Shown: positions 48,285-57,452, counted from the first letter of the stretch. The stretch is 64,000 bases of DNA from an uncultured Clostridium sp. (GCA_947363765.1 CANAQC010000002.1:14918-78917), one strand, 5' to 3'. Notes: generated from the sequence alone by a model not told the origin. Made by a program: numbers and translations.

Positions 48285-48440
48285 ATGGATTATGAAGTGA
48301 TGATGAATGGAAATGTAAGAATCGGTATGTATGCTCCAGATTTTGAAGCACAAACTACAATGGGAGATATTTGTTTAAATGATTATAAAGGAAAGTGGGT
48401 GGTATTATTTTCACATCCAGGAGACTTTACCCCCGTATAA
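48285..48440 (+). CDS. peroxiredoxin, N-terminal part (interrupted after ..HPGDFTPV by the inserted element)
   Basis: [51 protein letters not shown], then TAA supplied by element DNA. Confidence 0.85.
48427..48438. repeat. attL core TTACCCCCGTAT
   Basis: Identical 12-mer at 56869-56880. Recombination between the copies restores the prx reading frame exactly. Confidence 0.8.
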
Positions 48441-48678
48441 TCTCTCAATTTGGGGAAATACAAAAAATGCACGATATTGCCTTGTATTTTTTGATATCGG
48501 TAAGTTATTAAAAGTCAAATAAAAACGGCACAAAACTGATTGTGGAGCGTTTTAGAAGGTTATTTGCAAAAAAATTGCCTATTTTTAATAGTGTTCCTCC
48601 CACAATTTGCTCAAAAAAATAATTTGATTAATCAACTGATATAAATACTATAGCATATTTTTTGGAAAATGTATATTC

Positions 48679-49185
48679 CTATTTAGTATTCAACATATAT
48701 TCTTTAAGTAGTTCCATATTTTGATTATAACACCATATATACTTAATTGTTGCATTGAAAGGTGAAAATTCTGCATCAGCAATTTTATATGCAATATATA
48801 AATCATTATTTGTACATAATGTAACATGAGGTCTATAAACTCTTTTCAATCTTCTTTCTAATCTATACGATTTTAACTTTTCATCAAATATATATTTCAA
48901 ATTCATTAAATTATCTTTATTATATGGTTCTATATATAAAGTTGCATTATCAAAATTATTCAAATTTCTAAATTCAATATTAAAACTACTTATATCTTGA
49001 ACTATCTTGTCTAGTTTTTCTATAAATTCATTTTCATTCTTACAATCATATAAATCAATAGTTATATGAGGTAGCCAATTTCTTTCTCTATCAATAACAT
49101 TATTTGATTTTAAATTGTTTTTAATACTTTGAATATAATCTTGTGTTTCTTTATCGAAACCATATTGTAATACATAATCATACAT
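48679..49185 (-). CDS. 2H phosphoesterase superfamily protein (LigT/cyclic phosphodiesterase-like)
   Basis: 168 aa with two H-x-T-x motifs (LPHITIDLY, RPHVTLCTN). Confidence 0.7.
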   Translation of the reverse strand: MYDYVLQYGFDKETQDYIQSIKNNLKSNNVIDRERNWLPHITIDLYDCKNENEFIEKLDKIVQDISSFNIEFRNLNNFDNATLYIEPYNKDNLMNLKYIFDEKLKSYRLERRLKRVYRPHVTLCTNNDLYIAYKIADAEFSPFNATIKYIWCYNQNMELLKEYMLNTK

Positions 49186-50434
49186 TTAATGTTTCATCTC
49201 CATTTCTTCTTATAAGCAAGTTTTCTCTCTTATATAATTTAGATAAAATCAACCTATAAACTATACTTCTAGAATAGAAGTCAATAAAATTTACTATTCC
49301 AAATACAAACAATGCAAAAGAAGTATTTATAAATAATAAGCATATTAAAAATCTTATTATAACTCCAATAGTAGATCCTATAACCAATATAATTGATTTT
49401 CCTTGAGTAATACATAATGTTTTATATGTTTCATATGGATATAGTCCAAATACACCAAATGAATAGAATATAATATATGGAAAACATTTATACACTGGCA
49501 AACTACCATGTGATATTATCAAATAGATAAATGCAAATACAAAATTTATTGTAATAATTAAAGGAAAGCATTTGTTTCTTATATTCATACAATTATCATA
49601 TTGTTCTTTATAAGTTTTGCCTTCTGGAACTTTAATCATCAGAGTTGCTTGATATGCATTTGTAATAATCTCTAAAGTTAAACATACAGAATAACAAATA
49701 GTGTGTATTCCATAATTTTCAGTTCCCATATGACTTGCAACTACACCATATAATAGTAAAAATATTCTAGATAATAATCTCTCTGAAGAATATGCAAACC
49801 CATATTTAATTACATTTTTTAAAGACTCTTTATTTGGAAATTCAAACTTTAACTTCAAATTATATAACATATATATAATTGAGATAAGCCAAGATATTAT
49901 AGTTGCAAAAAATAATAATGTTAAATTTTTAGTAAGTAAATATGCTAGTGCATCTAGTCCAACCAAAGAAACATAGTAAACAATTAAGCTTTTTCTATAT
50001 AATCTTAATTGTCCCTTAAGTCTTACTATTTCAAAAATTCCATTTGCTAATCTTCCCAATATTACATAGGCAATATAAAAATTTAATAATATAGACATCA
50101 TATCTTTTTGTATATAGCTTAAATCAAATATATTTACAATCAAATTTTTACAACTAAAAACTATGATCCCCATTAATATTCCAAATATAATATTAAACCA
50201 TAAATATTGCCATTCATTTTTTCTTGTTGTCCTATAAGTATATATTCCTATTTCACAAAAAGATTTAAAAATTGAATCTATTAATAAAAAACTTCCAGTT
50301 ACTACTATAGCGTCAATACTAATCATATTATTAAATGCCGAGTCAATACTATCTGCTATACTCATAAATATAAAACTTATAAGAATTGATATAAATTCTT
50401 TCATTCCTTTATCACCTTTTTTATAATTCAACAA
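49178..50434 (-). CDS. 12-TM membrane protein (MATE/MOP-like)
   Basis: 418 aa, polytopic. Overlaps the downstream 2H gene by 8 nt, implying translational coupling. Confidence 0.6.
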   Translation of the reverse strand: MLNYKKGDKGMKEFISILISFIFMSIADSIDSAFNNMISIDAIVVTGSFLLIDSIFKSFCEIGIYTYRTTRKNEWQYLWFNIIFGILMGIIVFSCKNLIVNIFDLSYIQKDMMSILLNFYIAYVILGRLANGIFEIVRLKGQLRLYRKSLIVYYVSLVGLDALAYLLTKNLTLLFFATIISWLISIIYMLYNLKLKFEFPNKESLKNVIKYGFAYSSERLLSRIFLLLYGVVASHMGTENYGIHTICYSVCLTLEIITNAYQATLMIKVPEGKTYKEQYDNCMNIRNKCFPLIITINFVFAFIYLIISHGSLPVYKCFPYIIFYSFGVFGLYPYETYKTLCITQGKSIILVIGSTIGVIIRFLICLLFINTSFALFVFGIVNFIDFYSRSIVYRLILSKLYKRENLLIRRNGDETLNV

Positions 50435-50726
50435 GATTATACTATAAACAACAAAAAAATACTATACTTAATGAAATTTATGTTTTGGTATCTATATAAT
50501 TTTTACAATTCATTTTGTTATTTTTATAAAGGGGTTGGGACTTAGTCCCATAATTCGAATTTTGACTAGGGAGTAAAAATTCAGTGCTTGTTAGGAAGTG
50601 TATGGGGGTACAAAAATATCTGCTATTCCTAATGCAAAAAATTTTGTTAATTGTTCAATATAACTACTTCTAAAATTTATTTTATCAATATAAAATTCTC
50701 GGTTTTTTATTCTTTAATAATGTCAT

Positions 50727-55582: not shown

Positions 55583-55631
55583 CTTTACAAAATCTTAAGC
55601 TTGTGATAAACTATACTAGAGGTGAATTGAT

Positions 55632-56834
55632 ATGCTAATTAGAGAAAAGTATTTAAATAAAATAAGAGATTTTTATAATGAAACATCTCTAATTAAAATA
55701 ATATATGGATTAAGAAGAAGTGGTAAATCAGTTATTTTAACACAAATAATGGATGAAATAAAACAACAAGGAATTGATGAACAACAAATAATGTATATAA
55801 ATTTTGAATCATTAGATTATAGTTTTATAAAAAATGCAAAAGATTTAAATGATTATATAAAAAGTCTTGCAAAAGGTAAAAGTAAATACTATGTTTTTTT
55901 AGATGAAATCCAAAAAGTAGAAGAATTTGAAAAAGGTATTAATTCTTTAAGAATTACAAATCAGTTTAGCATATTTATAACTGGTTCTAATAGTAAAATG
56001 ACTTTCTTAGAATTATCTACAGATTTATCTGGAAGATATGTAAGTTTTAGAGTTCAGCCATTAACTTTTAAAGAAATAGTAGAATTTAAGAATGTAAAAA
56101 AAGAAGATTATAAGAAACTATTATTAGACATATTTGAATGGGGCAGCCTTCCACAAAGGTTTTCTTTTGATAATGAAAGAGCAAAACTAAACTATATATC
56201 AGATGTATATGATTCAATACTTTTAAAAGATGTAGTAGAAAGATTAAATATAAAAGATATAACATCATTTAATAAAATATTACAATATGTGTTAGAAACA
56301 GAAGGTAGAGAATTTTCTGCAGTAAATGTTTTAAATTATTTAAAGAGCGAACATCATGAAATTGCTACTGACACTTTATATAATTATCTAGAGGCATTAT
56401 GTTCAACTTTTATCATGAACAAAGTTTATAGATATGATATTCAAGGGAAAAGTGTGTTAAAAACTTTAAATAAATACTATGCATCTGACTTAGGTGTTAA
56501 AAAGATTAAAATGAATAATAAAGAAGTAAATTACTCAATTTCACTAGAAAATATAGTATATAATGATTTGATTTCTAAAGGATATGAAGTATATATTGGA
56601 AAAAACAAAAAAGGCGAAGTGGATTTTGTTGCAACAAAAAATAAAGACCTAAAATATATTCAAGTAAGTTATTCATTATCTGAAGAAGAAACAAGAGAAA
56701 GAGAATTTGGAGCATATGCTGGAATTAATGATTCATATCCAAGATATATCATCTCATTAGATGAGGAAGATTACTCAAGAGATGGAATTAAACATATAAA
56801 TATATTTGATTTCTTAATGAATGATGAGTTTTAA
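55632..56834 (+). CDS. AAA+ ATPase with DUF4143-type C-terminus (COG1373-like)
   Basis: GLRRSGKS Walker A, FLDEIQ Walker B, C-terminal restriction-endonuclease-like region (EVDFV). Confidence 0.75.
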   Translation: MLIREKYLNKIRDFYNETSLIKIIYGLRRSGKSVILTQIMDEIKQQGIDEQQIMYINFESLDYSFIKNAKDLNDYIKSLAKGKSKYYVFLDEIQKVEEFEKGINSLRITNQFSIFITGSNSKMTFLELSTDLSGRYVSFRVQPLTFKEIVEFKNVKKEDYKKLLLDIFEWGSLPQRFSFDNERAKLNYISDVYDSILLKDVVERLNIKDITSFNKILQYVLETEGREFSAVNVLNYLKSEHHEIATDTLYNYLEALCSTFIMNKVYRYDIQGKSVLKTLNKYYASDLGVKKIKMNNKEVNYSISLENIVYNDLISKGYEVYIGKNKKGEVDFVATKNKDLKYIQVSYSLSEEETREREFGAYAGINDSYPRYIISLDEEDYSRDGIKHINIFDFLMNDEF

Positions 56835-56868
56835 ATAATAAAAATAATAATCCCCACATTTAGAGAGC

Positions 56869-56880
56869 TTACCCCCGTAT
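56869..56880. repeat. attR core TTACCCCCGTAT
   Basis: Second copy of the 12-mer; the prx frame continues T-P-V-C-T-T-E from here. Confidence 0.8.
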
Positions 56881-57452
56881 GTACTACTGAAATAATTGCA
56901 TTTAGTAAAGCAAATACATATTTTAGTAAACAAAATGCTTGCTTATTAGGATTAAGTGTAGATAGTAATGCCTCACATCTTGCATGGTTATATGATATTT
57001 ATTGCAAAACAGGAATAAAAGTTCCATTTCCAATTATTGCAGACAGAAATGGAACTATTGCTAGAAAATATGGCATGATATCAAATGATGTTAGCAATAC
57101 AGAAACAGTTAGAAATGTATTTATAATTGATGATAAAGGGATTGTTCGTGCGATTTTAGTCTATCCAATGAATGTAGGAAGATGTATTCCAGAAATACTA
57201 AGATTATTACAAGCATTACAAATTGCAGATTGCAACAAAGGAGCGACACCTGCAAATTGGTGTCCATATGAACCAATGATTGTACCAATGCCACAAACAT
57301 ATCAAGCTTTAGAAGAAAGAATGAATAATATTACTAAAAACAGAAATGGATTTAATTGGTATTTGAGTTTTAAACAGCCAGAACAATGTTGTAATGATAG
57401 TATAGAAGATAAAAAAACAAAACAAATTGAAACAAAGAAAGAAATAAAATAA
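56871..57452 (+). CDS. peroxiredoxin, C-terminal part (from ..TPVCTTE..)
   Basis: TPVCTTEIIAFSKANTYFSKQNACLLGLSVDS..HLAWL..PFPIIADRNGTIARKYGM... 1-Cys/Prx6-like. In frame with track ORF 57075..57452. Confidence 0.85.
   Translation, partial: TPVCTTEIIAFSKANTYFSKQNACLLGLSVDSNASHLAWLYDIYCKTGIKVPFPIIADRNGTIARKYGMISNDVSNTETVRNVFIIDDKGIVRAILVYPMNVGRCIPEILRLLQALQIADCNKGATPANWCPYEPMIVPMPQTYQALEERMNNITKNRNGFNWYLSFKQPEQCCNDSIEDKKTKQIETKKEIK

Follow-up and report, generated by a model that had tools for sequence, protein, structure and literature searches.

The 64,000-nucleotide stretch of DNA analyzed here, referred to as the window, originates from an uncultured Clostridium sp. (GCA_947363765.1 CANAQC010000002.1:14918-78917), and positions are counted from its first letter. 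A peroxiredoxin gene (prx) in the window is precisely interrupted by an element bearing a large serine recombinase (LSR), with a copy of a 12-bp core at the left and right attachment (att) sites, attL and attR. The gene pieces and the junctions are as follows.

48285..48437, plus strand, prx 5' piece, codons 1-51, then TAA
48427..48438, plus strand, left core copy (attL), TTACCCCCGTAT, exact repeat
56869..56880, plus strand, right core copy (attR), exact repeat
56880..57452, plus strand, prx 3' piece, codons 52-241, peroxidatic cysteine first

The 5' piece runs from the ATG at 48285 (M..HPGDFTPV) to its last base at 48437, and the 3' piece opens at 56880 with TGT ACT ACT GAA (CTTEIIAFS...) and stops at 57452. 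The core TTACCCCCGTAT was found exactly twice in the 64 kb when both strands were checked, and the chance expectation for further copies, calculated from composition (window G+C 25.3%), was ~7e-4 per strand. The similarity between the two junctions reaches 18 bp with 2 mismatches, and the insert between the core copies is 8,430 bp. Fusion of 48285-48438 to 56881-57452 yielded a stop-free open reading frame (ORF) of 241 amino acids, in which the cysteine codon consists of a T (48438 or 56880) and the following GT; the peroxidatic cysteine is the first codon past the insert. These sequence checks bore out the cut between the FTPV and CTTE codons, with the 5' part ending at 48437 and resumption at 56880, that had been proposed in an initial annotation, and its shared 12-mer, its 8,430 bp between the copies and its Prx6-like ORF of about 241 amino acids after deletion were all reproduced.

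The joined protein matched the NCBIfam peroxiredoxin model PRK13189 from end to end with 268.6 bits (cutoff 211), and the cutoff was passed only by the joined ORF. It also matched Pfam AhpC-TSA and 1-cysPrx_C, and its alignment to Prx6/archaeal-type peroxiredoxins of known structure spans the junction (5ovq, E 5e-63). The full-length match, the peroxidatic cysteine in FTPVCTTE and the 1-cysPrx_C tail place it in the Prx6-type, 1-Cys class.

A scan of one genome per species returned 352 relatives of the joined protein. Loci of relatives were fetched for comparison (~3 Mb in all) and are designated by L-numbers. In eight syntenic genomes (L001-L008) prx is unbroken and represents the empty site, on which the two flanks of the insert share exactly the 12 bp of the core; the survey of relatives for an uninterrupted prx, suggested by the initial annotation, thus showed that the two halves are one gene. 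A chimeric contig joining an unrelated element to prx might be suspected in an uncultured organism that is probably known from metagenome assembly; however, this reading is refuted by the same junctions in independent assemblies from many samples and studies, in 79 species, and by the exact core duplication, and its probability is negligible. Full-text literature searches returned no paper linking a peroxiredoxin with an intervening element, in agreement with the earlier statement that no such target was known.

Contents of the insert

The features between the two core copies are listed below; attP denotes the site reconstructed by joining the two ends of the element.

48439..48552, plus strand, conserved left end of ~115 bp, shared with L025/L081, L161-L170 and most related loci; its first ~21 bp (AATCTCTCAATTTGGGGAAAT) form the right-hand arm of attP as reconstructed
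48679..49185, minus strand, cargo: 2',5' RNA ligase/LigT-like phosphoesterase, 168 amino acids (Pfam 2_5_RNA_ligase2, E 1.6e-10), missing from most sister elements
49178..50434, minus strand, cargo: polytopic membrane protein, weakly MATE-like, 418 amino acids (NCBIfam matE, E 6e-6, under cutoff)
50727..51203, minus strand, C-terminal remnant of another LSR, inverted (PHROG 95 integrase, profile positions 400-551, E 3e-11)
51270..51707, plus strand, conserved ORF of 145 amino acids, nucleotide identity 95.7% in L025 and 97% in L168; no family assigned (Pfam, NCBIfam)
51862..53223, plus strand, cargo: HD-domain protein, 453 amino acids (Pfam HD, E 1e-4), missing in L025
53244..53671, plus strand, leader of the recombination operon, with a half-disrupted conserved palindrome and a ~110-nt insertion
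53672..53887, plus strand, ORF of 71 amino acids, candidate recombination directionality factor (RDF) by position and size; no family match (Pfam, PHROGs)
53928..55505, plus strand, LSR, 525 amino acids (Pfam Resolvase, Recombinase and Zn_ribbon_recom; PHROG 95 integrase, E 1e-83; weak NCBIfam CcrC and XisF)
55507..55586, plus strand, two tandem 40-nt repeats, 78% identical, between the LSR and ATPase genes
55632..56834, plus strand, cargo: AAA_14/DUF4143 ATPase, 400 amino acids, candidate single-gene anti-phage system (Pfam AAA_14, E 4e-30, and DUF4143; PADLOC PDC-S01, 453 bits)
56850..56868, plus strand, right end, the left arm of the reconstructed attP (ATCCCCACATTTAGAGAGC), co-varying with the left-end arm between LSR clades

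The recombinase was assigned to the LSRs by matches to PF00239, PF07508 and PF13408, all above cutoff, and by the nucleophilic Ser10 in GYCRLSRDE. Its start, previously placed at 53877, was corrected to the ATG at 53928, which is preceded by the ribosome-binding site (RBS) GAAGGAGG. The gene is complete, as had been proposed, but it does not adjoin one end of the element, since the 400-amino-acid ATPase gene (55632-56834) separates it from the right junction. The sequence of the second of the two 40-nt repeats (55507-55586) sits directly before the attR arm in L083/L084, which suggests that the ATPase cargo was inserted between the repeat and the arm. The inverted LSR remnant at 50727-51203 is consistent with accretion of more than one element.

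The insert was not distinguishable from its flanks by G+C content. No phage structural, packaging, lysis or lysogeny genes were found in it by PHROGs, which gave integrase matches only and three weak ones to families without known function, and IMG/VR held neither a relative of the window LSR nor the attP. A prophage or defective prophage was ruled out by these results, and the SPbeta- or skin-like content suggested earlier was not found: the insert is free of phage genes, with cargo made up mostly of candidate defence genes. Scans with Pfam and NCBIfam detected no relaxase or conjugation genes in the window's element. The insert is a small non-phage island, and its integrative nature is regarded as nearly certain.

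The island family, its attachment sites and its movement

The window LSR retrieved 79 loci, which belong to different species of low-G+C, uncultured gut Clostridia (62-100% amino acid identity), including CAG:273 and CAG:440 scaffolds and the complete 1.57-Mb chromosome of a metagenome-assembled genome; the prx loci from the protein scan include CAG:571 and a 1.55-Mb chromosome. Where the flank suffices, the LSR is preceded by the prx 5' piece and/or followed by the 3' piece, in the same orientation in all such loci except L129. The prx halves lie between 3.1 kb (L128) and 19.5 kb (L121) apart, and in the minimal islands (L106, L128) the content is reduced to the small ORF, the LSR and roughly one gene of cargo. 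Comparison of these loci showed a recombinase-mediated insertion that is precise and family-wide, with intact att sites and gene pieces.

In ~19 loci prx is in three pieces, namely codons 1-51, a middle piece from CTTE to GLSVDSNxSH, and the remainder from SHLAW. The second break (site 2; the FTPV/CTTE break is site 1) lies between DSNxSH and LAW at ~codon 85 and has its own LSR family, ~30% identical to the site-1 family and 69-100% identical within itself. The site-2 arms are TTGGTAAC and GTTACCAA on either side of the core TCACAT(C/T)T(T/A)GCAT. A third element type was found at site 1 in L038 (6682-10020), with two tandem LSRs (514 and 571 amino acids), a tyrosine recombinase and a response regulator, and with its left end outside the fetched DNA. 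Relaxase genes were absent from the site-1 elements. Sites 1 and 2 correspond to the most conserved peroxiredoxin motifs, FTPVCTTE and SVDSxxSHxAW.

Site-2 island loci: L083, L098, L099, L109, L121, L134, L141, L143, L144, L152, L153, L155, L159, L161/L172, L179-L181

Joining the right end to the left end of the window's island gives an attP with dyad symmetry, ATCCCCACATTTAGAGAGC-TTACCCCCGTAT-AATCTCTCAATTTGGGGAAAT. The arms around the 12-bp core are symmetric (CCCCACATT ... AATTTGGGG), the left-end arm (from 48439) being an inverted repeat of 56850-56868, and they covary with the LSR clade: LSRs of at least 80% identity to that of the window are accompanied by CCCCA(C/A)ATT ... AATTTGGGG, and those ~65% identical by (C/T)ATCCAAAGAT ... 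ATCTTTGGATG (short form ATCCAAAGAT/ATCTTTGGAT). Such a joint change is the signature of functional att sites for the cognate recombinase. Junction polymorphisms of L025 mapped the crossover inside CCCGT of the core, in agreement with the attP dyad centre. The attB, the site in the uninterrupted gene, is the most conserved DNA stretch of prx, covering codons GDFTPV and CTTE around the peroxidatic cysteine. The 71-amino-acid ORF and the LSR that follows it form a conserved module: nearly all related loci have a counterpart of the small ORF at this position (40-99% identity). The LSR, with the 71-amino-acid protein as RDF, would recombine attL with attR by a crossover in CCCGT, by which the island would be released as a circle and intact prx restored; the junctions predicted after excision are GGAGACTTTACCCCCGTATGTACTACTGAAATAATTGC (attB) and CACATTTAGAGAGCTTACCCCCGTATAATCTCTCAATTTGGGG (attP).

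A further motif, (C/T)TGATATTGC(T/C)T, was observed ~35-45 nt inside the left end in most loci (48460-48552 in the window). It is kept in both arm types, with conservation well past the ~50 bp needed for an LSR site.

The small ORF, LSR and ATPase genes of the window and L025/L081 share 99.1-99.8% DNA identity, whereas the adjacent prx 3' piece shares 86% and the upstream host gene 79%; for the LSR module of L025 the figure is 99.5-99.8%, against 86% for prx. Across 1,326 pairs of interrupted loci, LSR and prx identities were uncorrelated (r = 0.12). Vertical inheritance of the element was ruled out by this lack of correlation and by the far closer LSR module, and the idea of a vertically inherited fossil had to be given up. 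LSRs of 97-100% identity reside in hosts with 69-91% identical prx, indicating that transfer between species is frequent.

Exact-match searches with two proteins, that of the upstream host gene and the DUF1540 protein encoded beside prx, gathered contigs of the window's own species from many independent samples (host flanks 99.1-99.8% identical). Twenty-one contigs were read on the left and ~22 on the right, and every place shown was interrupted. At least four site-1 cargo sets, with LSR alleles 82.5-100% identical, were present (L161-L170):

Set 1, that of the window: LigT, MATE, HD and PDC-S01
Set 2: DpnII-type restriction-modification
Set 3: Dam methylase and DUF6996/6997
Set 4: metallophosphatase and ToxN

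Cargo turnover is rapid at an always-occupied site in this species. Some of its samples have site 2 filled too, by an island with a Mob_Pre (MobV-type) relaxase and HEPN/MNT genes, and the relaxase is confined to this separate element. Regardless of whether excision is developmental, the locus is a dedicated hotspot, with mostly defence-type cargo swapped within a species whose backbone is >99% identical. The family also supplies dozens of natural LSR/att pairs that come in two arm types, have a defined core and are accompanied by a small conserved ORF, all of which are useful for recombinase engineering and for the study of directionality factors.

The sole match to the attP pattern in metagenome contigs (L160:41-86) is a tandem element-element junction inside a chromosome. 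The second island there, which contains genes for a P-type ATPase, a DUF6591 protein and an LSR, borders directly on the prx 3' piece; a free circular form in L160 was ruled out by this order of two islands in tandem and then the prx 3' piece. In L026 (10001-11062), the first 51 prx codons occur a second time and, by eye, do not differ from those of the intact copy. This extra fragment runs into an attL-like junction and ~130 bp from the left end of an island, including a perfect 23-bp hairpin, and directly after it come the native promoter and intact prx. The arrangement is either a scar that an earlier insertion and rearrangement left behind or the product of assembling mixed alleles.

Promoters, leaders and the spore-former context

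Two further features adjoin the prx pieces.

48227..48254, plus strand, candidate sigmaK-type prx promoter, AC-N17-CATAgtaTA, ~30 nt before the ATG
57508..57675, plus strand, DUF1540 cysteine-rich protein, 55 amino acids (Pfam DUF1540), downstream partner of prx, syntenic in most loci

Upstream of intact orthologues of prx, the motif AC-N16/17-CATAnnnTA was detected in 58 of 79 cases, with a spacing of 23-30 nt to the ATG. Shuffled sequences gave 0.4 of 79, and the background rate was 0.7% of 100-nt windows. The motif is kept at a fixed distance in 28 of 37 interrupted prx copies. An unanchored MAFFT alignment gave the consensus gTAACaAAAA..TTTCATATaATATAcAAAAAATGAAAGGAG (elsewhere written gTAACaAAAA..TTTCATATaATATA), with conservation of 84%, 95%, 99% and 100% for the C, A, T and A of CATA, and 99% and 94% for the T and A of TA. 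When combined with an RBS and a start codon, the motif gave 97 matches in the ~3 Mb of fetched loci, 87 of which were prx; the other 10, including one BclA_C-like protein (under the Pfam cutoff) and one glycosyltransferase, are too few to validate the sigmaK type.

The hosts appear, by gene content, to be endospore formers. The window contains a germination operon, gerAA/AB/AC (40169-44252), and the DUF1540 gene adjoining prx, in support of the spore-former host named in the initial annotation, and L160 carries a gene that, from our own reading of its sequence, we take to be sigF/sigG-like.

In Clostridioides difficile and Bacillus subtilis, sigmaE and sigmaK have a common CATA-type -10, whereas the -35 is ATA for sigmaE and AC for sigmaK (PMC3789822). 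Among the sigmaK-dependent proteins of C. difficile is CotE, a peroxiredoxin/chitinase of the spore coat (PMC3789822). CdeA, from the exosporium of the same species, contains a DUF1540 domain (PMC7677010), and the phyletic distribution of this domain follows that of endospore formers (PMC2955703). Because of the sigmaK-type promoter, the CdeA-like DUF1540 partner and the CotE precedent, prx looks like a late mother-cell gene of spore-surface type.

The recombinase operon has a conserved leader. The palindrome/hairpin CATAATATTT-n5-AAATATTATG stands right before the RBS of the small ORF (leaders of L081-L159 and the window) and ahead of it lies a further hairpin, A+U-rich and with a run of U. 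In one sub-clade the two arms of the palindrome have co-varied, giving ATAACATTT..AAATGTTAT (9 pairs, of which 2 show compensatory changes); a CATAATAT box together with the palindrome was found in most loci and was absent from one sub-clade. The predicted pairing probability of the RBS exceeded 0.5 in 28 of 62 leaders and was lower when the 5' part was shuffled, and a long-range helix (TTGGAC/GTCCAA) predicted over the RBS was strong in one sub-clade only. In the window the palindrome is half-disrupted (GCATAATATTTATAGAGAAATAAT at 53522-53545). Its 3' arm is broken by an insertion of ~110 nt (~53544-53655), shared with L082 and absent from L081, which brings a TGcTATAAT box, a sigmaA-like extended -10. 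Rfam gave no known RNA family in the element or leader at E <= 1, and generic sigma-70 and terminator scans, with 89 found versus 88 expected, were uninformative in this A+T-rich DNA. In the minimal islands, 200-300 nt separate the prx 5' piece from the operon, which follows it in the same orientation, so that read-through from the prx promoter could time excision there; in the window, 5 kb and two convergent genes lie between the prx 5' piece and the operon.

The structured, palindromic leader by the RBS suggests tight conditional control, as would suit a reversible switch in growing cells, similar to active lysogeny, in which stress-triggered excision (peroxide, DNA damage or phage) would turn prx on in a subpopulation or free the island for transfer, with no tie to the mother cell. 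The sigmaA-like TGcTATAAT of the window copy points the same way, and turnover within a species requires germ-line excision or replacement. However, germ-line excision would leave empty sites, none of which was seen among ~40 own-species contigs, and the prx promoter is of mother-cell type and not a typical stress promoter. Such a switch is improbable.

Proposed excision or inactivation of the interrupted gene

The explanation that we favour, which as a whole is slightly more likely than not, is a mobile island whose excision in the mother cell would rebuild prx. Excision would take place in the terminal mother cell, where the gene is needed, and the forespore chromosome would keep the island. 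This would explain prx as a safe harbour for three recombinase lineages, as well as species-wide occupancy without decay of prx. The developmental part, which draws on analogy with known systems, has about an even chance of being correct. The initial annotation had read the insert as a skin/SPbeta-like intervening element, and this reading was supported in part, by the split gene, the LSR, the sigmaK-type promoter, the three LSR lineages and the intact pieces, but not by the content, the recombinase promoter or the search for excised forms.

A broader version is tentative and falls somewhat short of an even chance. It holds that, across a clade of uncultured gut Clostridia, a sigmaK-dependent spore-surface prx is a shared docking gene for at least three island lineages and is reassembled in the mother cell by one or two excisions, a division of soma and germ line that would spare spore quality. 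Occupancy would then be permanent in some species, the gene would be in three pieces in some genomes, and the forespore would carry exchangeable defence cargo.

The main rival is plain insertional inactivation, in which a selfish or defence island uses the FTPVCTTE codons as a landing site in a dispensable prx and excision is rare and linked to transfer. LSRs, as phage integrases, often use conserved coding sequence as attB. The frequent cross-species transfer and cargo turnover, the defence-island cargo (PDC-S01, restriction-modification, ToxN, HEPN/MNT) and the MobV-type relaxase of the site-2 element also agree with this rival. On the other hand, no decay of the split gene was seen in ~50 species or in the fully occupied species. 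Full pieces across the loci comprise 49 3' pieces, 34 5' pieces, 18 middle pieces (plus L101 by eye) and 11 distal pieces, and a single piece (L092) is apparently truncated. Every frame change in the prx pieces is an extra C before a GGN glycine codon, a clade-wide feature, and decay was ruled out as the cause of the apparent frameshifts, all of which lie at the CGG sites of the clade. The ratio of nonsynonymous to synonymous differences (pN/pS) was 0.22-0.26 for interrupted pairs and 0.19-0.225 for intact pairs in the same pS bins, which fits retained prx function, although the comparison is weak in that synonymous sites are near saturation and many insertions are possibly recent. The promoter is kept in interrupted copies, and three unrelated LSR lineages have entered a gene with a sigmaK-type promoter, as in the known sporulation intervening elements. 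Inactivation of a dispensable gene is considered rather unlikely.

Several results besides the weakness of the pN/pS comparison weigh against mother-cell excision. Neither an attB nor a circular attP form of the island was found in assemblies, and an exact look-up of the joined protein (241- and 248-amino-acid versions) in a collection of 15 billion proteins returned nothing. No strict sigmaE/sigmaK pattern was detected upstream of the 71-amino-acid ORF and LSR (before 53672), and the leader palindrome of the window is disrupted by the 110-nt insertion. These two sets of negatives, on excised forms in assemblies and on a sporulation promoter for the recombinase operon, would be expected under inactivation. 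The prx promoter motif holds a perfect TATAAT and is readable as a sigmaA promoter with a weak -35, and sporulation of the hosts is deduced from genes. The 71-amino-acid ORF, a candidate RDF by position and size, has a pI of 8.9, whereas CD1234 and SprB, small proteins of the skinCd and SPbeta systems described below, are acidic. Finally, since the elements move so often, prx may be intact in part because insertions are recent.

If excision is developmental, a spore-surface antioxidant enzyme would join the short list of genes rebuilt in sporulation, and the phenomenon would reach abundant, uncultured, small-genome gut Clostridia. It would also be the first case that we could find in spore formers of one gene with two sites and two independent recombinase systems.

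The locus shares with the sporulation intervening elements (skin, SPbeta, vfbin, vrin, gin and yin) an interrupted coding sequence restored by removal between short repeats, an element-borne site-specific recombinase, and att sites made of inverted repeats around a core. The arrangement matches gin above all, as well as skinCd and SPbeta/spsM. The gin element (GirC/GirX), which interrupts gerE in Bacillus cereus ATCC10987, resembles the islands described here: it is not a phage, and it has an LSR and a small RDF, an attP-like inverted repeat around a short (9-bp) core, a composite make-up with extra recombinase genes and near-identical copies across strains (PMC5595907). It differs in its size of 28.6 kb and in that its excision during sporulation has been demonstrated, whereas excision is a prediction here; the present islands have mostly candidate defence cargo and up to two independent elements per host gene. 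In sigK of C. difficile, skinCd (LSR CD1231 with CD1234) is likewise an LSR element in a mother-cell gene of a Clostridium-class spore former, with 12-bp conserved cores in attL and attR and a ~70-amino-acid accessory ORF without database similarity, the 72-amino-acid RDF CD1234 (PMC5025042). Its target, however, is a sigma factor and not a peroxiredoxin, no sigmaE/SpoIIID promoter was found here, and CD1234 is acidic, whereas the small ORF here is basic and stands directly before the LSR; the present islands are 3-19 kb, phage-free and spread between species.

SPbeta in spsM of B. subtilis (SprA/SprB) has a small RDF gene just upstream of its LSR, a sigmaK-dependent spore-surface host gene and continued mobility (PMC4191935, PMC5499854), but it is a functional phage of 134 kb, whereas the islands lack phage genes and IMG/VR relatives. 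The heterocyst elements of Anabaena (nifD, fdxN/XisF, hupL) are also several in number and are excised from genes whose products only a terminally differentiated cell needs, and XisF is an LSR to which the window LSR gives a weak NCBIfam match (87 bits, cutoff 375); they belong to another phylum and developmental programme and are vertically inherited, unlike the horizontally mobile islands. The staphylococcal cassette chromosome (SCC; Ccr LSRs at orfX/rlmH) offers a parallel in non-phage LSR cassettes with variable cargo and in the build-up of tandem or composite arrays at a single dedicated site (cf. L160 and, in the window, the LSR remnant at 50727-51203), and CcrC/CcrB matched weakly here; SCC inserts at the 3' end and spares its target, whereas the islands cut the catalytic centre of the gene. 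The present system departs from known ones in four respects: the target gene, the small size with mostly defence cargo, the frequent transfer between species and the double interruption.

The CGG sites were scored as ORFs of at least 40 codons that stop in frame 0 and continue in frame +1. In the window, 9 of 67 CGG trinucleotides (13.4%) lie where an ORF continues in the +1 frame, compared with at most 1.6% for any other trinucleotide, and all nine are CGG followed by A or T (CGGA/CGGT), with an extra C before a GGN codon. They hit polC (6537-9395, continued in 9328-10785), gerAA (in three ORFs) and gerAC, and look like programmed +1 reading at CGG across the clade. As stated earlier for this locus, no such site occurs inside the window's island, which is not significant with ~1.4 expected. 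One island sub-clade has CGG +1 sites at conserved LSR positions (AGT-C-GGT-ATA; TGT-C-GGA-ACA), indicating that the islands share the recoding of their hosts.

CGG +1 sites, plus strand: 9378, 10762, 12322, 22103, 33814, 34751
CGG +1 sites, minus strand: 43736, 43372, 41273
Loci with CGG +1 sites in prx pieces: L083, L091, L103, L110, L139, L140, L154, L157
Loci with CGG +1 sites in the LSR (residue ~332/333, ~306-318 in some): L117 (second copy), L137-L139, L141-L150, L153, L155, L158, L159

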